Assembly: GCA_003140935.1 (NCBI GenBank)
Contig: PLLJ01000039.1
Span: 76,007 to 140,006 of the forward strand
Length of the DNA: 64,000 bases
Source: Candidatus Omnitrophota bacterium
GTDB lineage: Bacteria > Omnitrophota > Omnitrophia > Omnitrophales > Aquincolibacteriaceae
Direction of reading: 5' to 3'
The notes under the pieces were generated by a model that saw only the letters and a program-made list of their open reading frames with translations, was not told the DNA's origin and made no database searches. Positions 4,631-54,200 of the stretch are shown here, piece after piece. Position 1 is the first letter of the stretch; the number at the start of each line of letters is the position of its first letter. A program made the translations under genes and the position numbers.

Positions 4631-5083
4631 TTAATATTGCAAGGGACTCGGGACTCGTTCCTCGGGGCCCGTTTTCTTAAAAGAGCTTTTTCGATCCGCA
4701 ATAGCAGACCGAATTTTTTCCAGAAGCTTTCTGATCATTCTGGATTCATGATCGAGTTTTTCCAGGATCTTTTTAGCACCATCCTGGGTTATCAGCTGTA
4801 ACGGCGTAGCTATCTCGAGTTGCGTTTCGAGTTCGCCACAAGACCCTAGAGCAATGAATAAAAATCTCTTGTAGTCGCTCGAGTATTTTCTATTGAATCC
4901 TTCTGCGATATTGCAAGGAATCGAAACGGCAGCGCGACGCATCTGATCTGCCAGGCCAAACCTCTCTTCCTGAGGGAATGATTTGGTAAGACGGTAAATG
5001 TCCACAACCAAATCTTTCCCCATTTTCCATATAAGCAAATCCCTGAAACTTGAAATAGTCTTTACCTTGCCCTCTTCCGCCAT
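4631..5083 (-). CDS. Four-helix-bundle protein (23S rRNA IVS protein family, TIGR02436-like)
   Basis: Family-typical motifs (FPQEERFGLADQMRRAAVSIPCNIAEG, GSCGELETQL). The C-terminal tail reads through a GGGACTCG repeat, so the true stop is uncertain. Confidence 0.5.
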   Translation of the reverse strand: MAEEGKVKTISSFRDLLIWKMGKDLVVDIYRLTKSFPQEERFGLADQMRRAAVSIPCNIAEGFNRKYSSDYKRFLFIALGSCGELETQLEIATPLQLITQDGAKKILEKLDHESRMIRKLLEKIRSAIADRKSSFKKTGPEERVPSPLQY

Positions 5084-5096
5084 AACCCCCTCCTTT

Positions 5097-6803
5097 TTAT
5101 GTTGCTCGCGTTTGATTTAATTTCGAGTCCCGAGGGGCGAGTCCCGAGTCCCGGGCGTCATCCTTTTTGAAGTAAACCCACAAACGATCCAATTCCGGCT
5201 TCTGTTCGTAGATCCGCTCCAGGCGTTTCGAAAAAAACCCGTCCGTCATTCCGTCAAGGAGCGCGGTGAGCTCGTCTATGCGCAGAAGATTTTCGAGGTG
5301 CTCCTGCTCCGAAACGGACGGCGTGAAAATAAGGCCGATCTGAAGGCGCCGCCGCTCGTAGTAAATACGCGTGACCTCAGACAAGAGATCGTTCCGCAAT
5401 TCCACCATCAGTTTCTCTCGCGAATCGATCGAGGTTTGGTCCGAACTGTAGATCATGTCCCCAAGGTCCCAGCCCACGTTCGCATCCCAGCCCTTGCTTA
5501 CATCCTCAGGACCTGTGATGAATTTGCCGCTGTAGGTGCTGACGGAGCTGTTACGATCCAGATTTTTACCGAATGAAAAAGTCGGCAAAAATCCTGCAAC
5601 CCGGGACTCCGCATGCCAGCGTTTGATCTTTCCGTTCGCAACATCGGCGTATTGAATGACGCGTTTATGGATTTCACGGGCCGAAGGCTCTAGCTTTAGA
5701 AGTTCTTTAAAGAGCGCAAGAGTTTCCTCCGGCGGCTGATAGATCGCAAGGGCCGGTCCGGCTTCCGGCGTGAACGGTCCAAGAGGGTATTGAACGAAAC
5801 CTTCCCCCGTGATGGCGAGAAGCTTCTCTTCGTTCAGGACCGAGATGCTTTGCACGCGGTCCCGGGCCAGCCCTTCAAAAAGGCCGGTCCATTTTCGAGC
5901 ATGTTCATCGTAAGCATAGACACCCCGAGGGGTCGCGGCATAAAGAAGGCCCTTTTTTTCTGAATAGGCCAGCTGAAAGACAACGGCGCTTTGCAAGCCG
6001 CTTTGGGAGAGCGGTTCCCAGCGGTGTCCGCTATCGAGGCTTTGGAAGACGCCATTTGCGGTCGCGAGGAACAATGTTTGAGGGTTACGTTTCGAGGCGA
6101 GCAGATCGTGGATCTTGAAAATATAAGAAGAAACATCGACGGACTCGTTGTCGTCTGTTGTCTCCAAGGATTCATCCGAGGTTTTGGGAAGGGCAAAAAT
6201 CTGTTGCGCGGTTTCTCCGTCCAGCGAAAGAAAAAGCGTATTCTCAGTCGCGATAAAGAGGCGTTTTCCTTCAAAAAGAACCAGCGGGACGGGGCTTGGA
6301 CCATGAAGGGCGCGGGAAGCCGACCAGGTTTTTCCGGCATCCGTTGTTTCCCGAAGGCCTTTTTGAGTTCCCAGGAACCAGCGATTGGGGTCTTGGGGAT
6401 GAACCGCGAAGGAAAGCGGCTTTTTCCCTGAGTCTTTGTAGACCACGCGCCAAGAGCGGTCTTTTAAATTTCCCATGAAAACATTCCGGTCCGTGATCGC
6501 AAAAATAATATCCGGCAGAACACCGAAAGAAAATAGCCGCTTGATCGGCGCGCTTGCGTCGGAGTGGGACCAGAGCGGTTGCCACGCGTTCTCTTTTCCA
6601 GCCTCAAAAACCTGTTGCCCGGAAGCGATCAAGAATTTGGAGGCATCAAGCGGATGGGGAACGAGGCAGGTAAGGGCGCCGCCTGACATGGACGGCTGGA
6701 TGGGTTTTTGCCACTCCGCAGGCGCGGGAATCTGGAACCCCAGAATGCAAAGGAGCGATAGCACGACGCTCCAAATCACCAACTTTTTATTTGCTAGAGA
6801 CAT
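5097..6803 (-). CDS. Secreted BNR/Asp-box repeat protein with uncharacterised C-terminal domain
   Basis: Signal peptide after Met at 6803 (SD GGAGG). Asp-box-like TDAGKTW and LDSGHRW. Function unknown. Confidence 0.5.
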   Translation of the reverse strand: MSLANKKLVIWSVVLSLLCILGFQIPAPAEWQKPIQPSMSGGALTCLVPHPLDASKFLIASGQQVFEAGKENAWQPLWSHSDASAPIKRLFSFGVLPDIIFAITDRNVFMGNLKDRSWRVVYKDSGKKPLSFAVHPQDPNRWFLGTQKGLRETTDAGKTWSASRALHGPSPVPLVLFEGKRLFIATENTLFLSLDGETAQQIFALPKTSDESLETTDDNESVDVSSYIFKIHDLLASKRNPQTLFLATANGVFQSLDSGHRWEPLSQSGLQSAVVFQLAYSEKKGLLYAATPRGVYAYDEHARKWTGLFEGLARDRVQSISVLNEEKLLAITGEGFVQYPLGPFTPEAGPALAIYQPPEETLALFKELLKLEPSAREIHKRVIQYADVANGKIKRWHAESRVAGFLPTFSFGKNLDRNSSVSTYSGKFITGPEDVSKGWDANVGWDLGDMIYSSDQTSIDSREKLMVELRNDLLSEVTRIYYERRRLQIGLIFTPSVSEQEHLENLLRIDELTALLDGMTDGFFSKRLERIYEQKPELDRLWVYFKKDDARDSGLAPRDSKLNQTRAT

Positions 6804-7140: not shown

Positions 7141-7222
7141 GTCCCCATACTGTCCAATTTCAGAGAAGCGGAAATTGGGGCAATCCAAACTACCATTTAT
7201 ATAAAAAAAATAGAAGTTTGGA
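7141..7222 (+). repeat. Structured intergenic repeat family A, copy 1 (two-hairpin element)
   Basis: gtcccNatacNgtccaatttc...gaaattggggcaatcc plus second stem tccaaact/agtttgga. Homologous to 19588-19672 and 54052-54133. Confidence 0.6.
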
Positions 7223-7314: not shown

Positions 7315-8409
7315 ATGGGTTTCAAATGCGGGATCGTCGGTCTGCCGAACGTAGGCAAATCCACCATTTTCAACGCGATCGCCAAGGCACACGCCGCGGC
7401 GTCGAATTATCCTTTCTGTACGATCGAGCCGAATGTGGGCATGGTGCCGGTGCCCGACTCGCGTCTGTGGGAACTGAGCAAACTTTATAATCCTAAAAAG
7501 ACCACGCCCACCACCGTGGAGTTTTATGACATCGCGGGACTTGTCGCCGGCGCTTCCAAAGGAGAAGGTCTTGGCAATCAATTTCTCGGGCACATCAAGG
7601 AAGTTGAGGCCATTCTTCACGTGGTCCGCTGCTTTGAGGATCCCAACATCGTTCACGTTTCAGGCGCGATCGATCCTGCGCGCGATATCGACGTGATCGA
7701 TACGGAACTGTGCCTTAAAGATCTGGATACCATTAACGCGCGCTACGATAAGACCGAAAAGCTTGCCAAGAGCGGTGAAAAGGAATCCAAGGAAAGGATG
7801 CCGGTCTATGAAAAAGTGAAGAAGGCGCTCGAGGACGGTACGCCGCTTCGCAATATCGGTCTTACGGAAGAAGAAAAAAAGCTTGTGAAGGATATGGCGT
7901 TCCTGACGCTCAAGACCGTGCTTTATTGCGCGAATGTGGCGGAAAAGGACCTTCCCGGCGGCGGTCCTTTCGTCGATCTTTTGCGCAAGCGCGCGGCCAG
8001 GGAAGGCGCCGAGGTCGTCGTCATCTCAGGAAAGGTAGAGTCCGAACTGATCGATCTTTCGGAAGAGGACCAAAAGATCTTCTTAAAAGACCTGGGCCTT
8101 GAAGAGCCGGGACTTAACTCGCTTATCCGGACCGGTTATAAGGCGCTTCAGCTCATTACCTATTTCACGGCCGGAGAAAAGGAAGTCCGCGCCTGGACCG
8201 TTCGCAACGGCTCCAAAGCGCCGCAGGCCGCGGGCGTGATCCACTCGGATTTCGAGAGGGGATTCATCCGTGCCGAGGTCATGCGTTATGAGGATCTCAT
8301 CAAATACGGTTCCCAGCTGGCCGTTAAAGAAAAAGGACTTCTTCGCGTCGAGGGAAAGGAATACGAAACCCAGGACGGCGATGTGATGCTTTTTCGATTT
8401 AGCGTCTGA
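7315..8409 (+). CDS. ychF: Ribosome-binding ATPase YchF (Obg-family GTPase)
   Basis: G1 GLPNVGKST, TGS domain, full-length conservation. Confidence 0.9.
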   Translation: MGFKCGIVGLPNVGKSTIFNAIAKAHAAASNYPFCTIEPNVGMVPVPDSRLWELSKLYNPKKTTPTTVEFYDIAGLVAGASKGEGLGNQFLGHIKEVEAILHVVRCFEDPNIVHVSGAIDPARDIDVIDTELCLKDLDTINARYDKTEKLAKSGEKESKERMPVYEKVKKALEDGTPLRNIGLTEEEKKLVKDMAFLTLKTVLYCANVAEKDLPGGGPFVDLLRKRAAREGAEVVVISGKVESELIDLSEEDQKIFLKDLGLEEPGLNSLIRTGYKALQLITYFTAGEKEVRAWTVRNGSKAPQAAGVIHSDFERGFIRAEVMRYEDLIKYGSQLAVKEKGLLRVEGKEYETQDGDVMLFRFSV

Positions 8410-8418
8410 GGAAAAAAA

Positions 8419-8503
8419 CGGGACTAGTCTCTCGGGACTAGGGACTCGTTTTGCCCCAAGTCTTTGCCCGACCCAAAAAGGACGAGTCCCGAAGAACGAG
8501 TCC
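8419..8503. repeat. REP-like GGGACTCG/CGAGTCCC repeat cluster (family C)
   Basis: cgggactagtctctcgggactagggactcg...gacgagtcccgaagaacgagtccc forms a palindromic array of the core motif. Confidence 0.6.
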
Positions 8504-8561
8504 CGCGCCGGGGCTTTCGAATAAATTGCCCATCTCACATTGAATGAGTATAATCTGGCGT

Positions 8562-9718: not shown

Positions 9719-9796
9719 GGGGGCTCGTTCCTCGGGACTAGGGGCTCGCAAAACAAGGTTTTTGAACGAGTCCCGAGCGACAAGTCCCGAGTCCCA
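9719..9796. repeat. REP-like family C palindromic pair
   Basis: ggggctcgttcctcgggactaggggctcg...gaacgagtcccgagcgacaagtcccgagtccc. Confidence 0.6.
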
Positions 9797-11752: not shown

Positions 11753-11863
11753 AAGCAGGAAAAACCCTCGGTCCAGCGGCCCTTGCGCGGCATAAAGATT
11801 TTTGCTGAAAAGCCGTTAATGCAACGTCAGGAAAACGGCTCATTTTTCGGGAGGAAAATGCCC

Positions 11864-12304
11864 ATGAAAAAACATTTCTCTTTTCTTTTAGCTCTTCTGA
11901 TGATCTTCGCGTCTTTGTCTCCATCAGCCTTTGCGATGGGAGTCAAACAATTCGGAGCATCCTTGCTTTTGCCGACCACGGGTCAAGCCATGAACGGTGA
12001 GATCGGAGCCACCAAGACCAAGATCATGGCGGGCGTTGAAGTGGCCGCCGTGACCACGACGATCCTGCTGGCCACGCTGACCAGCGGCGGTCTTTTCTGG
12101 GTGGGGCTTGGGCCGCTTTTGGCCAACCACGCGTGGAGTGCCGCCGACGCTTATAAGACGGCGCGCAGCAACAACACGAACGATCCTTATATCCAACAAC
12201 AACTGACTTCAGCCCAGCGAACTCTGGACGCGTCCCGTCAGAGCCGTTTTGACCGGGAATCCGATATTCGCCAGAGGATCCTGAAAGCCGGCGAGCAGTC
12301 CTGA
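11864..12304 (+). CDS. Secreted hypothetical protein
   Basis: Signal peptide MKKHFSFLLALLMIFASLSPSAFA. No recognisable domain. Confidence 0.4.
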   Translation: MKKHFSFLLALLMIFASLSPSAFAMGVKQFGASLLLPTTGQAMNGEIGATKTKIMAGVEVAAVTTTILLATLTSGGLFWVGLGPLLANHAWSAADAYKTARSNNTNDPYIQQQLTSAQRTLDASRQSRFDRESDIRQRILKAGEQS

Positions 12305-12542
12305 TCCTCATCTATTAAAATCAAAGGTTGATCAGGACAGTCCAAGTCGCCATAAAGGGAATAAATAAAAGACTTGGACAGAACTAGAAATCGCTCTTTG
12401 ATTTTCTGATCTTGCGAAAGGCCTGATCCTCGCGATCAGGCCTTTTTTTCTATACTGTTCTCCATTTAATTTTATGAGGTAACAGTATGGTGCCGCATCC
12501 CCTTAATTTTAAATGTCATGCGGCGCCAACCCTAAGGAATTC

Positions 12543-18364: not shown

Positions 18365-18398
18365 AAAAGCGCCGGGTCTCAAAACCCGGCGCTTTTTG
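18365..18398 (+). terminator. Rho-independent terminator
   Basis: gcgccgggt-ctcaaa-acccggcgc followed by tttttg. Confidence 0.7.
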
Positions 18399-18574
18399 TT
18401 TCCAGTCCCCGCCGGCTTCCATACCGCACTCTATTTAAATAGAGGGATGCTGCGGTACAGCCCCTGATTCTCATTTAAGAAAATATTGGAAATCAGTGCT
18501 AGCACCGCAAGGCATTCAATTTAATGGAATGCGGTACAGCACTATTAACCCTTATATTCTAAGGGAGAACAGCG

Positions 18575-18724
18575 CTAGTCAAAAAGCTCGTCCACCCAGT
18601 GCTTCTCGGCCTTTTTCGCCGTCTTTCGATGATAACTCTTCTTGGAGGGTTTCACGCGCGTCTTGGGGTTGATCGCCCAACCGTGACGGGGCTTGGGCAT
18701 TTTTGAAAGCTTTTTCTTTGGCAT
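18575..18724 (-). CDS. Small highly basic protein (49 aa), not in ORF track
   Basis: MPKKKLSKMPKPRHGWAINPKTRVKPSKKSYHRKTAKKAEKHWVDELFD starts 12 nt downstream of suhB with GGAGA SD. Confidence 0.35.
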   Translation of the reverse strand: MPKKKLSKMPKPRHGWAINPKTRVKPSKKSYHRKTAKKAEKHWVDELFD

Positions 18725-19587: not shown

Positions 19588-19672
19588 GTCCCAATACCTA
19601 TCAATTTCAACGGAGTTGAAATTGGGGCAATCCTTGTCAACCATTTGGGAAAAGAATAAAAGACAAGGATAG
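19588..19672 (+). repeat. Structured intergenic repeat family A, copy 2
   Basis: gtcccaatacctatcaatttcaacggagttgaaattggggcaatcc plus stem atccttgtc/gacaaggat. Confidence 0.6.
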
Positions 19673-20823: not shown

Positions 20824-20848
20824 AGGGACTCGGGACTTGTACCTCGTA
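20824..20848. repeat. REP-like family C copy
   Basis: aagggactcgggacttgtacctcg. Confidence 0.5.
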
Positions 20849-20873
20849 AAAAATCCGTAGTTCCAACGAATCC

Positions 20874-20955
20874 CGCACTGAATTACCAATAAATTTTACA
20901 GTTATTCAGTGCAGCACTGGCTTCCAATAAAGATTTATGGGAAAGCCAGGCGAGG
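20874..20955 (+). repeat. Structured intergenic repeat family B, copy 1
   Basis: Hairpin gcactgaat/attcagtgc followed by the conserved core gcagcactggcttccaataaagattt. Confidence 0.6.
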
Positions 20956-20994
20956 GACGAGTCCCTGGTCCCGAAGTTGAAAAGGAGAAAACTG

Positions 20995-21402
20995 ATGCTT
21001 CCCCCTGATTGGAAAGAACCCTACCGAGTGAACATCCACGTGCTCGACGAACAGCATAAAAAGTTCTTCGATATCCTGGCAAATCTTTATGGCGCGGCGG
21101 GGAAGGAGTATGACGCCACATTCCTGGGCATCAGACTCATGGAGCTTTCGGTCTTCATCGGCATGCACTTCGACACGGAAGAGCTCATGATGAGCGAATA
21201 TCATTATCCGGGTTATGAAGAGCATCGGAAAGAACACGAGCTCTTTAGGGAGAAGATCGCGGACTTTCAGGAGGATCTTAAAATGGGGAAGGCAGCACTT
21301 TCCGTGAAAACGGTCTCTGCTTGGACGGAATGGCTCGAGCACCACATTACGAACTTTGACAAGAAATACAGCTCTTTCCTGAACGGAAAAGGGATCCACT
21401 GA
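20995..21402 (+). CDS. Bacteriohemerythrin
   Basis: Hemerythrin His/Glu/Asp ligands (DEQHKKFF, HFDTEELM, YEEHRKEH, EHH). SD AAGGAG. Confidence 0.7.
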   Translation: MLPPDWKEPYRVNIHVLDEQHKKFFDILANLYGAAGKEYDATFLGIRLMELSVFIGMHFDTEELMMSEYHYPGYEEHRKEHELFREKIADFQEDLKMGKAALSVKTVSAWTEWLEHHITNFDKKYSSFLNGKGIH

Positions 21403-24517: not shown

Positions 24518-24545
24518 GGGACTCGGGACACGGGACTCGTGGCTC
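24518..24545. repeat. REP-like family C copy
   Basis: gcgggactcgggacacgggactcg. Confidence 0.5.
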
Positions 24546-24597
24546 CTGGCCCGCAGTTTGTGGAACGCGTCCCTGGTTCGCAAAAGGAGGCCCCGAC

Positions 24598-25684: not shown

Positions 25685-25768
25685 CGCACTGGACCTCCCG
25701 ATAAAAATAAAAGGTTGTCGAGTGCTGCACTGGCTTCCAATAGAAATTTCAATGAGAGCCAAGCGAGT
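25685..25768 (+). repeat. Structured intergenic repeat family B, copy 2
   Basis: Hairpin gcactggac/gtcgagtgc plus core gctgcactggcttccaatagaaatttcaatgagagccaagcgag. Confidence 0.6.
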
Positions 25769-25801: not shown

Positions 25802-26959
25802 ATGTGCCCGGGTAACATGCTGGCTTTCGGGATGATGGCGGTCGTGATCGCCGTGGCGCTTGTGTCGCTCTTTTCCTACGTTGCGTCCGAAAAAAAATTC
25901 CGGGAAACACTGACGCTCGTCATGAGCGATCCGGAACTCCGGTGGAACGAGAAAGAACACAGGTTTCAATACAAGGACCTGGACTTCTTCTACAGAAAGT
26001 TTTCCGGGTCGCGCAACAGGCCGCCGTACTTTTCGGTTTCCGTGGTGTGTCAGGGGACGGGCGGGGGATTTGGGATCTCGAAAGAGGGCGGGGTGGAGCG
26101 TTTTTTCAAAGGGGTCGGCGTGACCCGTGAAGTCCAGACGCCGGAGGAGGAGTTCAACCGCAGGTTTTTTATCGCCTCCGACACGCCCCAATTCGCGCAG
26201 GACTATTTTGTGTCCGCGGAAAAACGGGAGGCGATGAGACAGCTTTTCGATGGGAAAGCCTCGACGGTCACGTATGGCGACCAGCGCGTGACGGTCACCT
26301 GGAAAGGGAGTTCCGCGCACACCGACGGCATCGCGGCGATCAAAAGCACTGCCGGGGCGCTGGCGGTCCTCGCCAAAGACATCCCTGCTTGCCCTGACCC
26401 TGCCTCTTCCGCCGGAACAGAAAGCGGCGTCTCTTCCAACCGCGTTTGGATGACCGGCCTCGCCGCGGGGTCCCTGGTGGCGGGCCTTGTCAGCGTGGTC
26501 TGGACTTCGGCGGGCTATCCCGTTTATGACGCTTGGCAGCTCTTCCTTTTTTCTTTGAAATTTTCCCTGCCGGCCCTGGCCGTTTTTTTATATTTCGCGG
26601 TCCTGACCCTGGCCGGGACTTCAAGGTCGCACAAGGACATTCTGCGGACCGGCTTTCTCGCGCTCGCGGGATTTCTGATGCTCGGGTGCGGTCTCACGGG
26701 CCTTTATAACGGCATGAAGGACACCTCACCGCCGGCGGGCCACACGGTGAGCATTCTGGACAAGCGGATCTACAAGTCCAAAAATTCCAGGACCTACAAG
26801 CTGATCGTCCAGTCCTGGAGACCGGGAAACGCCATTGAAGATCTTCCGACGAACCGGGGGACCTTTCAGCGGGTCGTCCCTGGAAAACACAAGGTGGTGG
26901 TCTACACCCGGCCCGGCAAACTCGGCTTTGAATGGTTCGTGACGTACCGGCTGTTGTAG
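25802..26959 (+). CDS. Hypothetical membrane protein
   Basis: N-terminal TM segment and three or four C-terminal TM segments. No recognised domain. Confidence 0.4.
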   Translation: MCPGNMLAFGMMAVVIAVALVSLFSYVASEKKFRETLTLVMSDPELRWNEKEHRFQYKDLDFFYRKFSGSRNRPPYFSVSVVCQGTGGGFGISKEGGVERFFKGVGVTREVQTPEEEFNRRFFIASDTPQFAQDYFVSAEKREAMRQLFDGKASTVTYGDQRVTVTWKGSSAHTDGIAAIKSTAGALAVLAKDIPACPDPASSAGTESGVSSNRVWMTGLAAGSLVAGLVSVVWTSAGYPVYDAWQLFLFSLKFSLPALAVFLYFAVLTLAGTSRSHKDILRTGFLALAGFLMLGCGLTGLYNGMKDTSPPAGHTVSILDKRIYKSKNSRTYKLIVQSWRPGNAIEDLPTNRGTFQRVVPGKHKVVVYTRPGKLGFEWFVTYRLL

Positions 26960-37412: not shown

Positions 37413-38489
37413 GTGACGAACAAGTTGACGCCCAGCCGCTATAAAGAAATCCTTGCCGACGTCATCCGGCTTTTCAAGAACGTGGAGCATTCCCTGGTCA
37501 CGGCCTACTGGAAGACCGGTCAATACACCGTGGAGATCGAACAGGACGGCGAACCCCGCGCCGCCTATGGTGACGGCATCATTCACAAATTTTCCGAAGA
37601 ACTGACCGAAAACCTGGGACCGGGATTTTCCGTCACGAGTCTCCGGCGGATGCGCCAGTTTTATCTGGAAAACCGAAAACGCGCACCGGTGCGCGAATTG
37701 TCCTGGAGCCATCACGTCGTACTCATGCCGGTCACCGATGCCAAAGTACGCAAGGCCCTGGAGCAGAAAGCGGTCCGGGAAGGCCTGACCCGGGATAATC
37801 TCCGCGTTCTGGTCCGCCATGAAGCCGTGCGGGCGCAGGTCGCCGCTCAACTGAGAGCGCGGGAATCGGGACTAGGGATTCGTAAGGAGTTACTGAAAGT
37901 CCCGAAGCTGGGGCTTTTCGACACCTGCCGGATCAAGGACCCCAACGAAACCCCCTGGCCTGACAAGAACGTCCTGCTCCTGGACCACGGGTTCAAAGGC
38001 TACCGCGCCCTGATGCCCGCAGAAGCCCGCGGCCTGAAAGCCGGGGACATCGTCGCGTGGACCGGCGTGAAACTTGTGAAGAACGGCCGCACGGCCCAGG
38101 ACCTTTTCACTTACCGGGCCTATCTCGAGAGCGTGATCGACGGGGACACGCTCTGGGTCATGCTGGATACCAATATACGAGGGGCCAGCCGCCAGAAGCT
38201 GCGGCTCCGGGGGATCGATTGCCCCGAGATCAATACCGAGGAGGGAAAGAAGGCGAAACAGTTCGTGGAAAAGGTCCTGAAAGGCGTCCCGTCCCTCACC
38301 GTCCTGAGCAGCAAGAACCCCACCTTCGACCGCTACGAAGCGGATGTGTTTTTCCTTCCGGTACGAAGCCTCAAAGCTTCGACCGGAGGTACTGGAACCA
38401 AAGGGGACCAGTGTTCAAGTGACAAAGAGGGAAAAGAGGTCTACCTTAATAACCTGATCCTCGAGAACGGATATGCCGTTAAAGTATAA
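37413..38489 (+). CDS. DUF1016_N (YhcG-like N-terminal domain) fused to staphylococcal-nuclease-like (SNase) domain
   Basis: N-terminus has RELSWSHHVVLM (YhcG_N hallmark). C-terminus has DGDTLWV...RLRGIDCPE SNase motifs. GTG start with GGGAGG SD. Confidence 0.55.
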   Translation: MTNKLTPSRYKEILADVIRLFKNVEHSLVTAYWKTGQYTVEIEQDGEPRAAYGDGIIHKFSEELTENLGPGFSVTSLRRMRQFYLENRKRAPVRELSWSHHVVLMPVTDAKVRKALEQKAVREGLTRDNLRVLVRHEAVRAQVAAQLRARESGLGIRKELLKVPKLGLFDTCRIKDPNETPWPDKNVLLLDHGFKGYRALMPAEARGLKAGDIVAWTGVKLVKNGRTAQDLFTYRAYLESVIDGDTLWVMLDTNIRGASRQKLRLRGIDCPEINTEEGKKAKQFVEKVLKGVPSLTVLSSKNPTFDRYEADVFFLPVRSLKASTGGTGTKGDQCSSDKEGKEVYLNNLILENGYAVKV

Positions 38490-38494
38490 CTGCC

Positions 38495-38606
38495 GGGACT
38501 CGTTCCTCGGGACTCGGGACACGGCACTTAACTCAAATAATGCGGGGAACGGCAAACGGGTAACGGGTAACGCAAGCGTTCCACGTTCCACGAAAAAAAG
38601 GAGGGA
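38495..38606 (+). repeat. Conserved 5' leader motif family D, copy 2 (with internal insertion)
   Basis: gggactcgggacacgg[40-nt insert]gtaacgcaagcgttccacgttccacgaaaaaaaggagg before ATG 38610. Confidence 0.55.
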
Positions 38607-38609
38607 TCC

Positions 38610-38972
38610 ATGACTCAAAAGATCCTTGTGATCGATGACGAACCCGATCTTCGTCAGCTGGTTGAACTCCGGTTAAGGAAAAACCAATATGAGACCCTTG
38701 GCGCGTGTGACGGGAAGATGGGCCTTGAAATGGCCGGACGGGAACATCCGGATCTCATTCTCCTTGATGTCATGATGCCGGTCATGGATGGGATCGAGGC
38801 CCTCCGCGCCTTAAAACAGACTTCCGAAACAAGCGCCATTCCCGTGATCATGCTTTCACAGAAAAAAGAAACCAGTTTGATCATGAAGACAGCGGATATG
38901 GGCGCTGCCGATTACATCCCTAAACCATTTCTGGCTGAAGATCTATTGAGGTCCATCAAGAGGAACATTTGA
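38610..38972 (+). CDS. Single-domain response regulator (CheY-like)
   Basis: ILVIDDEPD, LLDVMMPVMDG and K in IPKP. Confidence 0.7.
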   Translation: MTQKILVIDDEPDLRQLVELRLRKNQYETLGACDGKMGLEMAGREHPDLILLDVMMPVMDGIEALRALKQTSETSAIPVIMLSQKKETSLIMKTADMGAADYIPKPFLAEDLLRSIKRNI

Positions 38973-39023
38973 AGTCCATCAAGAGGCACATCGCTCAACT
39001 TAAGTCATTCGGGGAACGCCTGG

Positions 39024-39109
39024 CTCTCATTGAATTTTTATTGAAAACCAGTGCAGCACTCGACAACTTTTTCATTTTTTTATTGGAAGTCCAGTGCGGT
39101 GAACGATGA
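39024..39109 (-). repeat. Structured intergenic repeat family B, copy 3 (inverted orientation)
   Basis: Reverse complement matches the 25685-25768 core and hairpin. Confidence 0.55.
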
Positions 39110-39276
39110 ACGAAAATAAAGCGGGACTCGGGACTCGTTCCTCGGGACGGTTTCGGCGAGATTTTGCACTTGCCGCTCATTGCGTCAAGTACGGCCTGTG
39201 GGAATTCGGATATTCCCTACTGGCCGACAATCTCGTCCGATCCACGCTACACGGGGTTAAAGCAACCAAGGAGTCG

Positions 39277-39693
39277 ATGATGTTTTTCTCAAAATGGAAA
39301 TCCCCGTTGTTTTTTTTGACCGTGTGCGGCGTGATCGCGTTGAGCGGCTGTCAGACGATCCGGGATCATAATGCCCGGTCCAAGGAGGAGATGCTTGCGG
39401 CCGCGGGTTTTCGGATGAAACAAGCCCTGACGCCGGAACAATTGGCGAATATCCAAAACATGCCGCAGCGTAAGCTGGTCCCGCATACGAAGGACGGCCG
39501 GGTCATGTATGTTTATGCGGATGCCAAAGCCTGCCGGTGTGTGTATGTGGGTACGGAAAAAAATTACCAGGATTATCAAAGAATGGTCTATCGGAAAGAG
39601 CTTGCCGAAGAACAGGAAACGACGGCGGAAATAAACAGCGAAAACAGGTTTAATTGGGACCTCTGGGGATCCTGGGGGCCTTGGGGTTATTAG
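39277..39693 (+). CDS. Lipoprotein, hypothetical
   Basis: SD AAGGAG, lipobox LSGC. The upstream part of track ORF 39106 contains family C repeats and is judged non-coding. Confidence 0.45.
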   Translation: MMFFSKWKSPLFFLTVCGVIALSGCQTIRDHNARSKEEMLAAAGFRMKQALTPEQLANIQNMPQRKLVPHTKDGRVMYVYADAKACRCVYVGTEKNYQDYQRMVYRKELAEEQETTAEINSENRFNWDLWGSWGPWGY

Positions 39694-39724
39694 CCGGAGG
39701 CAGCTCAACTAAGGAGCCATGAGA

Positions 39725-40030
39725 ATGAATATGAAAATGGCGATGATCCTGGGACTGGCGTTGCTGCTCCTTCCCTGCGGGCGGCTTCTCGCGTGGGACA
39801 ACAGCGCGAGGACGGAAGAGATCTCCGCCAAGGCGGAACAGGCCAGGGAAGACGTCCGCAACATGCAGTCGAAGGTCAATGATCTGCAAGAGCAGATCCA
39901 CCGGCTGGAGGACAAGATCAGCTCCAGGGATTCCAAGCTGGAGGCCTTGGAAAGACAGGCGAGGGAGCAGGCCGCTTTGGAACGGCGGGTGAGGCCCCTG
40001 GAAGGCGCGCGCGAAGAACGCAAAGAATAA
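39725..40030 (+). CDS. Secreted coiled-coil protein (paralog 1)
   Basis: Signal peptide then coiled-coil heptads. 70% identical to the downstream paralog. Confidence 0.4.
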   Translation: MNMKMAMILGLALLLLPCGRLLAWDNSARTEEISAKAEQAREDVRNMQSKVNDLQEQIHRLEDKISSRDSKLEALERQAREQAALERRVRPLEGAREERKE

Positions 40031-40081
40031 ACTAGACGGCGTTCCATGAGAAGAGATTAGATGATAATTAAGGAGTGAACG

Positions 40082-40429
40082 ATGAACATGAAAAGAACGA
40101 TGATGATCCTGGGACTGGCGTTGTCGCTCCTTCCTTGCGGGCGGGGGTTCGCGTGGAACGACAGCGCGCGGATGGACGCGATCGCCTCCAAAGCGGAGCA
40201 GGCCAATGAAGGCGTCCGTAACATGCAATCGAAGATCGATGACCTGCAGATGAAGATCAACCGGCTGGAGGACAAGATCAGTTCCCGGGATTACAAGATG
40301 GAGGCCTTGGAAAGAAAACTGAGGGAACAGGACACTCTGGACCGGCGGGTCAGGGCCCTGGAAGACGCGCGCGAAGACCGCAAACTCCCCACACAAACCA
40401 AGACCCTCCCCGGCAAGCCGAATCCTTAA
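40082..40429 (+). CDS. Secreted coiled-coil protein (paralog 2)
   Basis: SD AAGGAG. Tandem duplicate of 39725-40030. Confidence 0.4.
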   Translation: MNMKRTMMILGLALSLLPCGRGFAWNDSARMDAIASKAEQANEGVRNMQSKIDDLQMKINRLEDKISSRDYKMEALERKLREQDTLDRRVRALEDAREDRKLPTQTKTLPGKPNP

Positions 40430-40436
40430 CAAACGG

Positions 40437-40473
40437 TCGGGACTTGGGACTCGTTCCTCGGGACTCGTACGTT
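40437..40473. repeat. REP-like family C copy
   Basis: tcgggacttgggactcgttcctcgggactcg. Confidence 0.55.
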
Positions 40474-40493
40474 GGAGCGCGGGAAAAATTAAT

Positions 40494-41572: not shown

Positions 41573-43318
41573 ATGAAAGAAAAGAATTCTCCGCAACCGG
41601 GAGTATCCCTGCAACAAAAAATAGCCCTGGTGGTTTTGGGCCTATGCTTGTCTCTGGTGCTTCTTGAAACGGGAATGCGCCTGGGCGGGTTTGTCCTGTC
41701 ATCGATCCAAGAGTATGGGAATTTACAGTCCATCAAACAAAAGGGCGCCTACCGTATCCTCTGCCTGGGGGAGTCCACGACCCAGGGACAATACCCCCAA
41801 CGTCTCGAGCAGATCTTGAACCAACGCAATGCCGGAGTGCGTTTCAGCGTTATCGATAAAGGCCTATACGCCACAAACTCTTCCGCCATATTAAGCCGAG
41901 TCGGACCCTATTTGGACGAGTATCATCCCGATATGGTGATCGCCATGATGGGGATCAATGATTGGGGGAAACATATGCCCTTGGAGGTCCCTACGACTTC
42001 GAAAGGAACGCTTTTCATCCGGTCGTTCAGGGTTTATAAGCTGATGCGGCTTCTTGAGCTGCATCTCTTGAAGAAAGCCGGGGAGATGGGGTTTTATAAA
42101 CCTGACGAGGCTAGACGAAGTTCTTGGAAGGCTCAAACCCCTGTTCCCAAAACCGGCCCCAGAGAATCCTCTGCGAAGGCTATTTCAGCCGGAGGATCAT
42201 TCCAGAACACAGCCTTCATCAAGACCCAAGAGATGAGGTCTTATAAACCTGAAGTGGATGAACGAAATCCCGGGAAGGCTCAAATTCCTCTTCCGGGGAC
42301 CGGGTCAAAAGAAACTTCTGCGGAGGCTGTTTCGATCGAAGAGCCATCGAGAAAGGCTACCGGGCCGAGTTCCCCAAACGATAAGGTTTTCGTTGATGTT
42401 GGGAAGGCTCAACGAGACCAAAGCCCATACCCACAGGACGAAAACTCTCTCAAGAGAGCTGTCGAGCGAGATCCTAAAAATTATGAGGCCTACCGCGCAT
42501 TAGGGGGGTTTTATCAGGATCAAGGCAAATTACCCCAAGCCGAAGCCTCTCTCCGGAAGGTCGTCGAGCTTGATCCGAAGAGCGCTCCTGCCTACGTTCA
42601 CCTCGGGACACTTTTTCAGCTGCAAGGCAAATTTTCCCAAGCCGAAACCTCTTTTAAAAAAGCCATCGAACTTAATCCGGAACAAAGTGAAGCCTACCGT
42701 GGGTTAGCGGAGCTCTATGAAGGTGGTCACACCGGCAAGGCGGAAGTGATGTTTAAGAAAGCCATCGAGGTTGATCCTAAAAACTTTGAAGCTTGCCTTG
42801 ATCTGGGATGGCTCTATCGACGGCAGAAAAGATTTCTGGAAGCCGAGGAATTCTTCAAGAAAGCCATGGAGCGGAGCCGTCTCCAAAATGACGACGACGG
42901 CTACTCGAGGGGCCGCACATTGAGGACCATGGCGTCTTTATACGAAGAAATGGGTAAACCCGGGTTGGCAAAAGAATATGTTCAAAAGATAGCCGGGCCG
43001 GGATTAGAGTGTTATCCGGTTACCCTTCACAACTATCGCAAGCTTAAGGAAACCCTGGATCAAAAGGGAATCAAACTGGTTTGTATGCAGTATCCCATGC
43101 GAAAGGTGGAAACACTCAAGAGAATTTTCGGGAGAAACGAAGGCGTTATTTTTGTCGATAACGAAAGCCTGTTCGCGGAAGCGGTGAAGAAAGGAAGTTA
43201 CAAGGAGTATTTTAAAGATATGTTCGCCGGCGACTTCGGCCATTGCACTCAGAAAGGCAACGAGCTTTTAGCTCAAAATATCGCCGCTGTGATCCTCAAA
43301 GAAGTATTTAACCAATAG
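41573..43318 (+). CDS. Membrane-anchored SGNH/GDSL-like hydrolase split by TPR repeats (paralog 1)
   Basis: N-terminal TM helix. CLGESTTQG (block I-like), central TPR repeats, C-terminal GDFGHCT (DxxH block V). Confidence 0.5.
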   Translation: MKEKNSPQPGVSLQQKIALVVLGLCLSLVLLETGMRLGGFVLSSIQEYGNLQSIKQKGAYRILCLGESTTQGQYPQRLEQILNQRNAGVRFSVIDKGLYATNSSAILSRVGPYLDEYHPDMVIAMMGINDWGKHMPLEVPTTSKGTLFIRSFRVYKLMRLLELHLLKKAGEMGFYKPDEARRSSWKAQTPVPKTGPRESSAKAISAGGSFQNTAFIKTQEMRSYKPEVDERNPGKAQIPLPGTGSKETSAEAVSIEEPSRKATGPSSPNDKVFVDVGKAQRDQSPYPQDENSLKRAVERDPKNYEAYRALGGFYQDQGKLPQAEASLRKVVELDPKSAPAYVHLGTLFQLQGKFSQAETSFKKAIELNPEQSEAYRGLAELYEGGHTGKAEVMFKKAIEVDPKNFEACLDLGWLYRRQKRFLEAEEFFKKAMERSRLQNDDDGYSRGRTLRTMASLYEEMGKPGLAKEYVQKIAGPGLECYPVTLHNYRKLKETLDQKGIKLVCMQYPMRKVETLKRIFGRNEGVIFVDNESLFAEAVKKGSYKEYFKDMFAGDFGHCTQKGNELLAQNIAAVILKEVFNQ

Positions 43319-43385
43319 GAAGACCGGCATAATGCCGGCGATTGTTTTTCTCGCGGGCTTAATCCGGAGCACGTAAAAGAAAATT

Positions 43386-44909
43386 ATGAAAAACACACCC
43401 ACGAAAATGGCGACCTCGTTCTGGCAAAAAATAGCCCTGATGGTCTTGGGCCTATGCTTGTCTCTGGTGCTTCTTGAAACGGGAATGCGCCTGGGCGGGT
43501 TTGTCCTGTCATCGATCCAAGAGTATGGGAATTTACGATCGATCAAACAAAAGGGCGCCTACCGCATCCTCTGTCTGGGGGAGTCCACGACCCAGGGACA
43601 ATACCCCCGTCTTCTCGAGCAGATCCTGAATCGGCGAAATATCGGAGTGCGTTTCAGCGTCATCGATAAAGGAAAAGATGGTGTAAAAACCTTCGTTTTA
43701 TTAAACCAGCTGGGATCTTACCTTGATGAATATCATCCCGATATGGTCGTTGCGATGATGGGGATCAATGACCTGGGAAGGCATCTGCCCTTGGAGGCGC
43801 CCACGACTTCGAAAGGAACGCTTTTCATCCGGTCCTTCAGAGTTTATAAGCTGATGCGGCTTCTTGGGCTGCATATTTTGACGAAAGCCGAAGCGATGGG
43901 GCTTTATAAACCTGCCGCAGACAAACCGGTTTCCGTAAAAGCTGAGACTCCTCCGAAAGCCGAGACCCCTGTAAAGGCTGAAATCCCTTTGAAGATCGAA
44001 ACTCCCGTAACCGTTCAAGCCCCTCTTTCCGGAACCGCGTCAAAAAAAACTTCCCCCCAGGATATTTTTACCGGAGATGCCCCTAAGGGCGATAAAGATT
44101 ACATCGGATTAGGGTGGCTTTATAAAGAGCAAGGCAAATTACCCCAAGCCGAAGCCTCTTTCAGGAAAGCCATCGAGCTTCATCCCCAAAGCTTTAAGCC
44201 CTACTTTGGATTGGGATGGTTTTATCTGGAGCAAGGCAAATTACCCCAAGCCAAAGCCTCTTTCCGGAAAGCCATCGAGCTTAATCCGGAGTGCGACGAA
44301 GCCTACGCTGGACTCGGGTCGCTTTTTCTTAATCTGGACGAATTCTCCCAAGCCGAAAGCTTATTCAAGAAAGCCATCGAGATCAACCCGGGAGCTATGG
44401 CGGCTTTTTCCGATCTGGGGCGGCTTTACCGGAATCACGGACAATTATCACAGGCTGAAGATTCCTATCGAAGGGCCATCGAGCTTGATCCTCATAACGA
44501 ATCCGTCCTGAGGGCCCTGACGTCTCTCTACGAAGAACTGGGCCAGCCCGAGTTGGCAAAAAAATATGCCCGGAAGATAGCCGAACTGAGATTCGGGGGT
44601 TATTCTGCGGTGACCATTGACAACTATCGAAAGCTGAAAGAGATCCTGGACCGGAAAGGGATCAAACTGGTCTGCGCGCAGTATCCCATGCGAAACGCGG
44701 GGCCTTTAAAGAAAATATTCGAGAATGATGAAGACGTTATTATTGTCGATAACGAGGGCCTCTTCACGGAAGCGGTGAGGAAGGGAAGTTACAAAGAATA
44801 TTTCAGAGACATGTTCGCCGGGGACTTCGGCCATTGCACCCTCAAAGGGAATACGCTTTTAGCTCAAAATTTCGCCGATGTGATCCTCAAGGAAGTGTTC
44901 AACAAGTAG
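43386..44909 (+). CDS. Membrane-anchored SGNH/GDSL-like hydrolase with TPR repeats (paralog 2)
   Basis: Same architecture as paralog 1. 5' 250 nt about 95% identical to paralog 1. Confidence 0.5.
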   Translation: MKNTPTKMATSFWQKIALMVLGLCLSLVLLETGMRLGGFVLSSIQEYGNLRSIKQKGAYRILCLGESTTQGQYPRLLEQILNRRNIGVRFSVIDKGKDGVKTFVLLNQLGSYLDEYHPDMVVAMMGINDLGRHLPLEAPTTSKGTLFIRSFRVYKLMRLLGLHILTKAEAMGLYKPAADKPVSVKAETPPKAETPVKAEIPLKIETPVTVQAPLSGTASKKTSPQDIFTGDAPKGDKDYIGLGWLYKEQGKLPQAEASFRKAIELHPQSFKPYFGLGWFYLEQGKLPQAKASFRKAIELNPECDEAYAGLGSLFLNLDEFSQAESLFKKAIEINPGAMAAFSDLGRLYRNHGQLSQAEDSYRRAIELDPHNESVLRALTSLYEELGQPELAKKYARKIAELRFGGYSAVTIDNYRKLKEILDRKGIKLVCAQYPMRNAGPLKKIFENDEDVIIVDNEGLFTEAVRKGSYKEYFRDMFAGDFGHCTLKGNTLLAQNFADVILKEVFNK

Positions 44910-46292: not shown

Positions 46293-47189
46293 ATGAAAAA
46301 ATATATTCTGATTCTGGCGGTACTCTTTTTTAGTTCGTGCGCAACGGCTCCCCGCCATCCTCCGGCACCGACCGCTCCGCCGCCGAAGCCTGCGGTGCCG
46401 CACGCGCCGGTCAGTTTGCCGTCGCAGCCGGCCCCGGTCCCTTCGCGCCGGGACGTGACGCATGTCGTGGCTCCCGGGGAAACGGTCGCGATGCTCAGCC
46501 AAATGTACGATGTGCCGGCCGGTTCTATCGTGTCCGCCAATCATTTAAAAAAGAGCGCGGCGCTCTCCTCAGGGCGGTCCTTGATTATCCCCCAGGCGTC
46601 CGCAGCCCGGTCGATCATCCCGCTTTTCCCGAATAAAAAATGGAAATATATCATCGTTCACCATAGCGCCACCCAGGAAGGGGACTCTCTCGCGTTCAAC
46701 CAGTATCATTTGAAAAGAGGGTTCGTCGGGGGCGTCGGTTATGACTTCGTGATCGACAACGGGACGCTCAGCAAGGTGGACGGACAGATCGAAGCGACCC
46801 CGCGATGGCTTAAACAGCAGGAGGGCCGGCATTGTAAGGCGTCCCATATGAACCAGAAGGCGATCGGGGTGTGCCTCGTGGGTAATTTTAACCAGGGAAA
46901 GATGACCGAGCACCAGATGGAGGCGCTCGTTTATCTGGTGGAGATCCTCTGCCGTTATTACAAGATCCCCGAAAAACATATCCTGGGACACGGCAAAGTC
47001 CCGGAGGCGGACACCGATTGCCCGGGGAAGGCTTTTCCCTGGCAGGAATTCCATAACCGTCTCAAGTCGACCGACGTAAGCGGGATGCCCCACGGAACCG
47101 GAAGCACGGAACCACTCATAAAACTTAAAGGAAGTTTGGTGCAGTCCCAGCCATCCTTTAAAATGGATGGGAGGGTCGGAACGCACTGA
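46293..47189 (+). CDS. Lipoprotein with LysM domain and N-acetylmuramoyl-L-alanine amidase (amidase_2/PGRP) domain
   Basis: Lipobox FSSC. LysM HVVAPGETVAMLSQMYDV. Amidase_2 YIIVHHSAT...GYDFVID. Confidence 0.65.
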   Translation: MKKYILILAVLFFSSCATAPRHPPAPTAPPPKPAVPHAPVSLPSQPAPVPSRRDVTHVVAPGETVAMLSQMYDVPAGSIVSANHLKKSAALSSGRSLIIPQASAARSIIPLFPNKKWKYIIVHHSATQEGDSLAFNQYHLKRGFVGGVGYDFVIDNGTLSKVDGQIEATPRWLKQQEGRHCKASHMNQKAIGVCLVGNFNQGKMTEHQMEALVYLVEILCRYYKIPEKHILGHGKVPEADTDCPGKAFPWQEFHNRLKSTDVSGMPHGTGSTEPLIKLKGSLVQSQPSFKMDGRVGTH

Positions 47190-47359
47190 ACGGCCCATAA
47201 AACTCAAAGGAAGTTTAGTGCAGCCCCAATCAACCCTTAAAATAAATGAGAGGATTGGGGCGCCATCCCGCGCGTAGAAGTCAGCTAAAATAGAACGGCG
47301 CCACTCCACTTTGGCTTCCGGGATGGGCAAAACGAAAAGCAAGTCCGGAGAAAAGAACG

Positions 47360-48909: not shown

Positions 48910-48982
48910 TAGGGAAAAAATCCGGGACTTGGGACTTGGAAAAAAACGGTAATCGGTACCACTCGAATAAAAAAAGAGACTT

Positions 48983-53094: not shown

Positions 53095-53829
53095 ATGCGC
53101 ACCGAAGAAGATCTTTATGTGGAAACGGGGTACAAGGTCCTCTGGGAGGATGCGTTTTTTCTCGTGGTGGACAAGCCGGCGCCGCTTCCGGTCCACGCGG
53201 TGGGCCGCTTCAAGGAGAAGAACCTGCTCAGTCTTTTGATCCGGGATATGGGCCCGGGTCCGGAAGGTCTCAGGATCGTGAACCGGCTTGATTCGGAGAC
53301 AAGCGGGATCGTGCTCGTCGCGAAATCGGCTCAAGCGGCGGGGAAGCTCGGGATCCTTTTTGAAAAGAGAGAGGTGGCGAAGGCCTATCACGCGGTGGTC
53401 TTCGGAACGCCCGCCGCTCGCGAAGGAACGGTCTCGATGTCTCTGGGGACCCGGAAGGAGCACAGCCAGCATATCCGTACGTCGGATCCCGGAGGCGAAA
53501 AGGCTCAAACGGATTATCAGGTTTTAAGCAGCGCCGGGGAATATTCTTTGCTCAAGGTGACGCCGCGGACCGGCCGCACCCACCAGATCCGGGCGCATCT
53601 TTCTTTTCTGGGCCACCCCATCGTGGGCGACAAGATCTACATTGATCCGAAAATCTTTGAGCGGTACATTCATGAGGGATGGCGGGAGGAGATGCGGCCC
53701 GTCGTGAAGACCGAACGCCTTCTTTTGCACGCGTCACAGCTGGGATTTTGTCATCCCGTGACCGGAAGACCGGCCCAATTCACTTCGGCGATCCCGCCCT
53801 GCTTCGACGCATTCTTAAATGAGGCATAA
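53095..53829 (+). CDS. Pseudouridine synthase, RluA family
   Basis: HRLDSETSGIVLVAKS catalytic Asp motif and GRTHQIRAHL. Confidence 0.75.
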   Translation: MRTEEDLYVETGYKVLWEDAFFLVVDKPAPLPVHAVGRFKEKNLLSLLIRDMGPGPEGLRIVNRLDSETSGIVLVAKSAQAAGKLGILFEKREVAKAYHAVVFGTPAAREGTVSMSLGTRKEHSQHIRTSDPGGEKAQTDYQVLSSAGEYSLLKVTPRTGRTHQIRAHLSFLGHPIVGDKIYIDPKIFERYIHEGWREEMRPVVKTERLLLHASQLGFCHPVTGRPAQFTSAIPPCFDAFLNEA

Positions 53830-53839
53830 TAAACACTCG

Positions 53840-54200
53840 GGAGCAATCCCAGTGCGAAGAGGCACGCTCGCGAGACGGAGTGGGCAAGGTGGCAGGCAGG
53901 AATCGTCTCTCGACACCGGCTGTTCACTCCCTCCTGCGGGGAGTGCCAGCCTGCGCTCTCGCTGATGGGATCCGTTCCGCGGAACGGCACCAAGCTCCCC
54001 TCAGCTCCGAGAGCTGTCTCGTTACGATTCCTGCCTGGCCGAATGAAGTCGGTCCCAATACCTATCAATTTCCACAGAGTGGAAATTGGGGCCGTCCTCG
54101 TCGCCATTAAAGAAACAAATGAAAGACAAGGACGGGCGCGCGAGTGAAGATCGCCTCGCTGGGGCGAGCTGAACGATGACGAAGCGCATTGGGATTGCTT
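53840..54200 (+). repeat. Repeat family E, copy 1 (about 280-bp element with nested family A copy)
   Basis: Homologous to 61790-62080 (tgggatccg...ggcaccaagctccc...gcgcgagtgaag...tcgctggg...gaaga). Contains the extra 54052-54133 insertion. Confidence 0.55.
54052..54133 (+). repeat. Structured intergenic repeat family A, copy 3 (nested in family E)
   Basis: gtcccaatacctatcaatttccacagagtggaaattggggccgtcc plus stem gtcctcgtc/gacaaggac. Confidence 0.6.

Follow-up and report, generated by a model that had tools for sequence, protein, structure and literature searches.

A dispersed two-hairpin repeat with conserved loops and variable stems in Candidatus Omnitrophota, probably of the REP/BIME/MITE kind

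The DNA analysed here, a 64-kb stretch from Candidatus Omnitrophota (henceforth the window), contains three similar copies of a structured repeat, family B, at 20875-20955 (+, copy A), 25686-25768 (+, copy B) and 39015-39097 (-, copy C). An initial annotation had described three structured copies, one of them inverted, and these are indeed found: the degenerate 23-nt core GTGCWGCACTGGYTTYCAATARA has 3 exact matches in the window as opposed to 0 in 100 dinucleotide-preserving shuffles. Copy A lies between icd and the hemerythrin operon and ends 40 nt before the ATG at 20995, and copy B is separated by 34 nt from the start codon (ATG, 25802) of a membrane protein gene, i.e. the closeness to gene starts that had been reported holds for both. 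Copy C is antisense to both of its + strand neighbours, a response regulator (38610-38972) and a lipoprotein-like ORF (39106-39693). The lipoprotein-like ORF of the + strand is the real gene here and is also called by the gene caller of the sequence collection; a spurious ORF occupies 39289-39708 on the minus strand.

Each copy is a non-coding element of about 80 nt that consists of two adjacent hairpins, the arms of which vary among the copies yet are complementary. The arms of hairpin 1 are GCACTGAAT/ATTCAGTGC in copy A and GCACTGGAC/GTCGAGTGC in copies B and C, where they contain one G.G mismatch; the differing but matching arms noticed earlier are thus real in all three copies. The loop of hairpin 1 is A-rich and about 22 nt long, and in copies A-C a two-base linker (AG or TG) leads to hairpin 2, CACTGGCTT..AAGCCAGGCG, of which CCAATAAAGATTTATGGGA is an example loop. 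The conserved 'core' of about 60 nt described initially is itself this second hairpin (CTGGCTT..AAGCCAG). Copy A reads GCACTGAAT..ATTCAGTGC, linker AG, CACTGGCTTCC..GGAAAGCCAGGCG and has a minimum free energy of -32 kcal/mol; copy B has CGAGTC(C/T)C on each side. At the junction of the two hairpins there is a near-palindrome, CAGTGC-W-GCACTG, that is perfect over 13 bp in copy A and matches 5/6 positions per half-site in B and C.

Two diverged copies in tandem, missed by the initial annotation, were detected by a repeat search plus a hairpin-1 pattern. Copy D (47104-47182, +) has a hairpin 1 of the same type (GCACGGAAC..GTTTGGTGC) and lies inside the 3' end of an amidase ORF (46293-47189), where it codes for the last ~30 residues of the protein. 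It is followed by copy E (47183-47261, +), composed of GCACTGAAC..GTTTAGTGC (hairpin 1) and CCCCAATC..GATTGGGG (hairpin 2). Both keep hairpin 1 of family B, and their hairpin 2 is different but paired; the junction palindrome is absent from D and E and also from a metagenomic module, L041. Relative to shuffled sequences, folding is far better in copy A (z = -6.2) and copy E (z = -5.0), and the effect is weaker in copies B, C and D (z = -2.3 to -3.2).

A covariance model, R1, was built from eight family B-like sequences and run on the window without filters. Copies A-E scored 66-87 bits (A 85.5, B 86.7, C 83.2, D 65.8, E 74.4), and seven further modules with unrelated stems scored 19-44 bits. 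Family B is therefore a real family, as had been proposed, and also one part of a larger two-hairpin superfamily whose members have in common the layout, i.e. hairpin, short linker, hairpin, and the loop sequences, the stems being unrelated. The window total is 13 modules in 64 kb, all of them intergenic or at the 3' ends of ORFs; there is no module in the 10 kb beyond the right end of the window. The module at 12298-12381 (+) has the highest score of the seven (GTCCTGATC..GATCAGGAC, CAG, TCCAAGTC..GACTTGGA, CAG; 44.3 bits, E = 4e-10) and provides the stop codon of the ORF upstream. Another, at 12452-12529 (+), stands immediately 3' of a canonical terminator. The segment 18421-18577 (+) holds two modules (18421-18501 and 18502-18577), i.e. 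four head-to-tail hairpin units, each of which ends in CAG or TAG. Three modules form a GTCCCAAT subfamily: 19588-19670 (+), in the divergent promoter region upstream of icd and with TAG at both edges; 7141-7222 (+), upstream of ORF 7315-8409, whose N-terminus suggests by eye a ychF-like GTPase; and 54052-54135 (+), found by the repeat search and R1.

The basic unit that emerges is a stem of 7-10 bp closed by a loop of ~20 nt that is A-rich and conserved. Short linkers, mostly CAG, TAG or TG, connect the units head-to-tail; the usual arrangement is a pair (~80 nt), and runs of four occur sometimes. Hairpin types are mixed among modules: hairpin 2 of copy E in a related contig (L053) is of the GTCCCAATACC type, which is hairpin 1 of the 7141/19588/54052 subfamily. 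In two metagenomic modules, L001:4347-4440 (-) and L041:1430-1527 (+), hairpin 1 is preceded by 11-12 nt with the same sequence as the 3' arm of hairpin 2 (GGCAGGGCAGG and GGCGA(A/G)GGCCG), so the 5' arm of hairpin 2 could pair on either side. Such an arrangement may be left over from a tandem copy, or may represent a long target duplication or a switch between alternative pairings.

It is conspicuous that the loops are conserved whereas the stems are not. The loop consensus is roughly CTCCATTTAAWWWTAAAGGTT for loop 1 and roughly AACCATTAAAGAAAWAAATAGAA for loop 2, and loop-to-loop alignment scores are 4.4 and 3.7, respectively, versus -1.7 and -0.2 for shuffles. The loops have a clear orientation: when loop 2 is aligned with its own reverse complement, the score is -3.9. 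Loops of hairpin 1 and hairpin 2 score 0.88 against each other in direct and 0.02 in reverse-complement orientation; the idea that hairpin 2 is an inverted hairpin 1, as in BIME-like alternation or loop-loop kissing, was rejected on account of this better direct alignment. The arms pair within a copy at 0.98-0.99 and between copies at 0.52 and 0.51, and 14/18 and 19/23 of the stems are distinct. In the alignment of the eight family B sequences, 93.7% of the pair cells are standard pairs versus 82.7% in shuffles (0/500) and 24-43% in slid controls, and both sides have changed in 10/16 pairs. The covariation check that had been proposed thus upholds the structure in an expanded alignment, with compensatory changes in the arms. 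A strand-specific RNA structure was rejected because there is no asymmetry of folding energy between sense and antisense (mean difference, sense minus antisense, -0.1 kcal/mol, p = 0.49, 26 modules). A hand count of G.U (18) versus A.C (5) pairs is biased, since the stems were defined from sense-strand folds, and was discounted. A conserved loop on a variable stem is an unusual design, and we keep a smaller chance that the loop is recognised by a dedicated protein.

The copies of family B are nested in arrays of an octamer, GGGACTCG/CGAGTCCC (family C), and the link between the two repeats that had been drawn earlier is borne out. Octamer units of the form GGGACTNG occur 47 times in the window versus 8.6 times in shuffles, and are rare in the related contigs L049 and L051. 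Family C arrays typically begin 3-15 nt 3' of stop codons, in sense orientation, and often form inverted pairs. Sites of family C in the window are 2453-2517, 4643-4672, 5124-5153, 8420-8511, 9720-9796, 20825-20854, 24518-24546, 26976, 38488-38523, 39123-39152, 40439-40482 and 48924-48939. Upstream of copy A, an array (GGGACTCGGGACTTG..; 20825-20854, +) starts 3 nt after the icd stop codon, and directly after the copy there are inverted units (GAGGGACGAGTCCCTGGTCCC; 20952-20972, -), i.e. the two form an inverted pair around copy A. The statement that family C directly follows each copy is right for A and B and fails for C, where the downstream unit is degenerate (CGTTCCCC) and a clear GGGACTCG array adjoins the copy on its other side (39123-39152, +). 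The octamer CGAGTCCC stands on both sides of copy B and of the family B copies of L001 and L002, and is degenerate in A and C; it could represent either an 8-bp target duplication or insertion between array units. Other flanking repeats are 3 nt long, TAG or CAG, at 19588, 12298, L017_5179, L037 and L022_99, and 4 nt long (CACA) at L040. These direct repeats, CGAGTCCC as well as CAG/TAG, could simply be part of the repeat pattern.

Inverted family C arrays also occur elsewhere in the window. A gene for a 23S rRNA-intervening-sequence protein (4631-5083, -; PF05635, a weak bAvd-like match) is flanked by two of them (4643-4671 and 5124-5152; 86% complementary), and the locus has the appearance of a small cassette that was inserted.

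An ENA metagenome contig contains the whole window at 100% identity, and the Icd of the window has many homologues of 80-93% identity that carry the label Candidatus Omnitrophota or Omnitrophica. In a search of 185,579 species genomes the junction pattern of family B was found in 2 contigs only, both from Candidatus Omnitrophota MAGs. The copies are thus neither confined to this DNA nor devoid of structural conservation, and the family proposed initially stands in this respect. The copy in one of these two contigs, L001, is 92% identical to copy C, and apart from family B the sole DNA similarity between the L001 and L002 loci and the window is a 36-nt stretch of family C. A scan of metagenomes for the family C pattern yielded 42 contigs for the module search, and further modules were found in the Omnitrophota-like contigs L010, L017, L022, L037, L040 and L041; a family B-like copy in L033 is the same as that of L002. 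In the family B-like copy of L041 hairpin 1 is wholly different but perfect (GTACTTGCCC/GGGCAAGTAC). The family B-like module L040:3723-3890 (-) directly follows a tRNA gene and is itself followed by a canonical terminator; on account of this position it is probably co-transcribed with the tRNA.

Several searches were negative. A metagenome scan with the hairpin 2 pattern CACTGGNTTNCAATANAN{4,9}ATGRGANAGCC gave 0 matches, and no modules were found in viral contigs, plasmids and phages. Rfam 15 detected only a tRNA at gathering score, the best sub-threshold hit having E > 0.3, and at gathering as well as permissive thresholds nothing relevant was found in the window, in copies A and D/E or in L001/L002. 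Copies A, B and C are identical in all assemblies of this population (copy C in 7 assemblies), so no ongoing movement is seen.

Syntenic contigs of relatives were obtained via homologues of Icd and of the amidase. Relatives with 80-93% protein identity have either an empty site or too short a spacer where the window carries copy A, D+E and four other modules. With filters off, R1 finds 0 modules in L049/L051 (42 kb, Icd 91-92% identical) versus 7 in the matching 21 kb of the window. Clean block insertions are evident by alignment at 7141, 12298, 18421-18577 and 19588. The module at 19588 is an 83-nt insertion between CATTCTA and GAAGG relative to L049 and L051; those at 12298 and 18421-18577 are insertions relative to the same two contigs; and the site of 7141 lacks the module in L004, L013 and L031. 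A degenerate, decayed form of module 12452 is present at the same site of L051. The spacer between icd and the hemerythrin gene that houses copy A is 172 nt long in the window and 40 nt in contigs with a 93%-identical Icd; in L049 it measures 79 nt and contains no module, only unrelated small hairpins, and in L051 it is occupied by an mdh gene.

The tandem D+E (158 nt) is present in L053 and absent from L054. In L053 hairpin 1 of copy D has decayed, whereas the stem of hairpin 1 of copy E is unchanged and its hairpin 2 shows one compensated pair (C-G to T-A). Counted from the alignment, 3 of the 39 nt of hairpin 1 of copy E are not the same in the window and in L053 (~92% identical), and the intergenic DNA beside it is, by eye, more diverged. 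The conservation of this hairpin may reflect selection or gene conversion.

Two ORFs of the window have 3' ends rewritten by modules. The tail of the amidase (46293-47189), i.e. the last ~30 residues that derive from module D, is common only to its closest homologues, P0121, P0122 and P0124. In the 161-aa ORF 11783-12304, the last codon and the stop codon come from module 12298, the insertion of which changed GAG CAG CCC TAA to GAG CAG TCC TGA. An unrelated module of L010, at 3050, overlaps a stop codon via the same GTC(A/C)TGA arm.

Copies B, C, D and E fall in a region of ~28 kb (24.5-53 kb) that is missing from L049 and L051. In these two contigs aconitase is directly followed by pseudouridine synthase, PEMT and citrate synthase, the equivalents of which in the window, where identified, are at 53095 and 62168; this displacement of the genes on the pseudouridine synthase/citrate synthase side means that ~28 kb of the window are lineage-specific or rearranged. 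Within this region, a low-GC stretch at 32-40 kb (45.8% GC) carries genes of the Clp-protease-like, PIN and DUF1016 types; lipoprotein paralogues in tandem (39719-40429) and a pair of large genes with TPR-like repeats (41573-44909) are also part of it.

As to orientation, 12/13 of the window modules are on the + strand, rough gene calls number 50 on the + and 10 on the - strand, and the GC skew is uniformly positive across the window. Such a strand bias would not be predicted for a neutral repeat; it is confounded with gene direction and GC skew, and so can be assigned neither to transcription nor to replication. By our own tally the modules run in the same direction as the flanking genes in ~17 cases and against it in 7. 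Two modules of L001, one of them its family B copy, run against the direction of all genes around them, and neither this family B copy nor copy C is upstream of a co-oriented gene. The genes flanking the modules are unrelated housekeeping or island genes with no common function.

The suggestion that particular genes have their promoters or transcript ends at the copies found no support, in that scans detected neither a sigma-70-like promoter consensus nor an intrinsic terminator inside A, B or C. Loops are 19-24 nt long, and there is no T run. Canonical terminators are separate features beside other modules (12415-12450 and 18368-18398). Nor do the copies behave as marks of specific genes, copy C being antisense to its neighbours and the icd-hemerythrin spacer of relatives being devoid of the module. 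Three further candidates were rejected by eye: a sigma-54 reading of CTGGC.. (GG and GC are spaced by 10 instead of 12, and the sense strand has no GC), a leader peptide starting at the conserved ATGRGA (no Shine-Dalgarno sequence, inconsistent frames and lengths) and an IHF site (WATCAANNNNTTR) in the loops of hairpin 1 (one mismatch off, and in some subfamilies only). A sigma-70-like site, TTGACG, 16 nt, CAAAAT (9/12), lies at 39161-39188 (-), 64 nt upstream of copy C and in the same orientation; the chance expectation of such a match is ~0.2 for that region. A short antisense RNA that spans the family C array and copy C could start from this site. No transposase, Y1_Tnp, RAYT or other mobilising gene was found among ~40 ORFs of the window and 10 ORFs of the module-rich L001.

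Among known repeats, the closest parallels are found in small non-coding elements. The REP/BIME elements of enterobacteria and pseudomonads are mobilised by RAYT, a Y1/HUH transposase. Like them, the modules described here are short imperfect palindromes, multi-copy, located in intergenic DNA or at the 3' ends of ORFs, arranged as mosaics of a few hairpin types with short linkers, and present or absent between related genomes, and their effects on transcripts would be secondary. The differences are substantial. In the Omnitrophota units the loops are conserved and the stems variable, which is the reverse of REPs; the units follow each other in direct orientation whereas REP units alternate (inverted); and the punctuation is (C/T)AG rather than the 5' foot GTAG/GTGG of REPs. 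Stems of the present units start with G-Y-N-C, many units are bounded by CAG/TAG, and hairpin 1 of family B is preceded by CCC or CTC, not by a constant GTAG. Moreover, no RAYT gene is among the ORFs mentioned above.

With MITEs (Neisseria Correia elements, pneumococcal RUP and BOX, ERIC) the modules share the lack of coding capacity, a size of ~80-150 nt, strong structure, insertion in intergenic DNA or ORF ends with changed C-termini or stop codons, and the occurrence of lineage-specific families. Presence and absence at orthologous sites are seen as well (7141, 12298, 18421-18577, 19588 and D+E are empty in relatives); for copy A the spacer of the relatives is too short or otherwise occupied. 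Unlike MITEs, the Omnitrophota element has no terminal inverted repeat across its length, its ends belonging to two separate hairpins, and inverted family C arrays enclose only copy A and the copy of L002. A target duplication of constant length is not apparent, and neither the DNA examined nor the viral, plasmid and phage collections yielded a related autonomous insertion sequence. PATEs derived from IS200/IS605 resemble the modules in having two subterminal hairpins with similar feet (GCACTG.. in both hairpins of family B), no obvious target duplication and a short constant edge sequence, and the strand bias is compatible with single-strand transposition. They differ in that no tnpA/tnpB was found in the ORFs examined and that the Omnitrophota elements are shorter than typical PATEs.

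In cyanobacteria, small dispersed repeats (21-27 nt) are nested in tandem heptamer repeats, and family B is likewise found inside arrays of a G-rich short tandem unit (GGGACTCG). Of the G-rich repeats GGGNATC / GGGGA(C/T)T of Xanthomonas and Nostoc (PMC4692102), the GGGNATC type is reported to lie within ~50 nt after stop codons on the sense strand and to form G-quadruplexes; the family C arrays have the same placement after stop codons. The present case differs from both in the repeat unit (an octamer), in the phylum and in the nested element, which is a two-hairpin structure of 80 nt and not one of 21-27 nt. The modules do not correspond to intrinsic terminators, which consist of a G+C-rich short-loop hairpin and a T run, and they do not resemble cis-regulatory RNAs either, i.e. 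they have no conserved sense position upstream of orthologues and match no curated RNA family of Rfam. A full-text literature search found no published description of genome repeats in Omnitrophota.

Taken at the level of sequence, these data make it probable that family B is a subfamily of a lineage-specific, non-coding, dispersed and insertion-prone hairpin repeat of the REP/BIME/MITE kind in Candidatus Omnitrophota. As judged from the alignments, modules come and go as whole blocks, both between genes and at the very 3' ends of ORFs. Family B is no regulator dedicated to the hemerythrin operon or to the gene of the membrane protein; it looks like a selfish or structural component of the genome rather than a switch for nearby genes. 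Under such a scenario the hairpin would be the feature required for the persistence or spread of the element. The likeliest route would be that the folded single strand is handled by a trans-acting enzyme, for which HUH/Y1 transposases of the RAYT or IS200/IS605 type may serve as a model; template switching at replication might be another. Effects on neighbouring genes, such as the stabilising or processing of transcripts, would be secondary and depend on the site.

Some REP and BOX elements act in mRNA protection, processing or insulation, and the Omnitrophota hairpins might likewise act mainly as RNA in untranslated regions, either protecting upstream mRNAs from 3' exonucleases or serving as processing or insulating sites between co-transcribed genes. 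Selection for such a role would keep the stems paired, and the stems do covary. Most modules are co-directional with the flanking genes (~17 versus 7), A and B are situated between co-directional genes 34-40 nt before the next start, and module 12298, being between a stop codon and a canonical terminator, must be transcribed. Even so we regard this explanation as unlikely. Copy C and two modules of L001, its family B copy included, have an orientation opposite to that of their neighbours, folding is equally good on the two strands, some modules are beyond terminators or in divergent promoter regions (18421-18577, 19588), and relatives function without modules at the same junctions. The comparison of the same junctions also bears on a narrower proposal, in which the copies would serve the hemerythrin-aconitase operon and the membrane protein gene at 25802 as gene-specific RNA leaders, similar to riboswitches or attenuators, or as promoters. 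That copies A and B form stable structures in sense orientation and end 40 and 34 nt before start codons is what one would expect of such leaders. However, relatives with 91-93% identical Icd have no element in the orthologous icd-hemerythrin spacer, copy C and the L001 copy precede no co-oriented gene, the downstream genes have no common function, and there is neither an Rfam match nor a sigma-70-like consensus. This proposal is largely refuted by the comparative sequence data, and we consider it highly improbable.

The conservation of the loops across subfamilies and genomes, with stems that vary, raises the question of recognition by proteins. The loops, or the CAGTGC-W-GCACTG palindrome, might be binding sites for a DNA-binding protein (nucleoid-associated or IHF-like, or a dimeric regulator), the modules then being architectural or regulatory. 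The perfect 13-bp palindrome of copy A, with 5/6 per half-site in B and C, and the symmetric folding of the two strands would fit a site in double-stranded DNA. But D, E and L041 do not have the palindrome, its presence elsewhere follows from the two hairpins sharing the same foot, a double-stranded site would need no compensatory changes in the stems, and the sites come and go among close relatives, which together render the suggestion quite improbable. The same conserved loops on variable stems could also point to a functional hairpin that is recognised in trans. In a more far-reaching version, which we think doubtful, the hairpin unit ((C/T)AG-bounded, with an A-rich loop and a covarying stem) would be the recognition module of an undescribed trans-acting system of Omnitrophota, i.e. 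a single-hairpin mobile element that stacks beside existing units, or a genome-wide set of RNA or DNA hairpins whose loops are bound by one protein (a regulon or sponge).

Family B probably matters little for the biology of the neighbouring hemerythrin-aconitase genes. Omnitrophota are uncultured, and recognising the superfamily prevents mis-annotation in their genomes, where the modules lengthen ORFs spuriously, introduce new stop codons, pass for 'conserved' intergenic motifs and break assemblies. The insertion sites are also markers by which species and strains can be told apart in metagenomes. Were a cognate enzyme to be found, the design of conserved loops on variable stems would offer an informative contrast to the recognition of REPs by RAYT.
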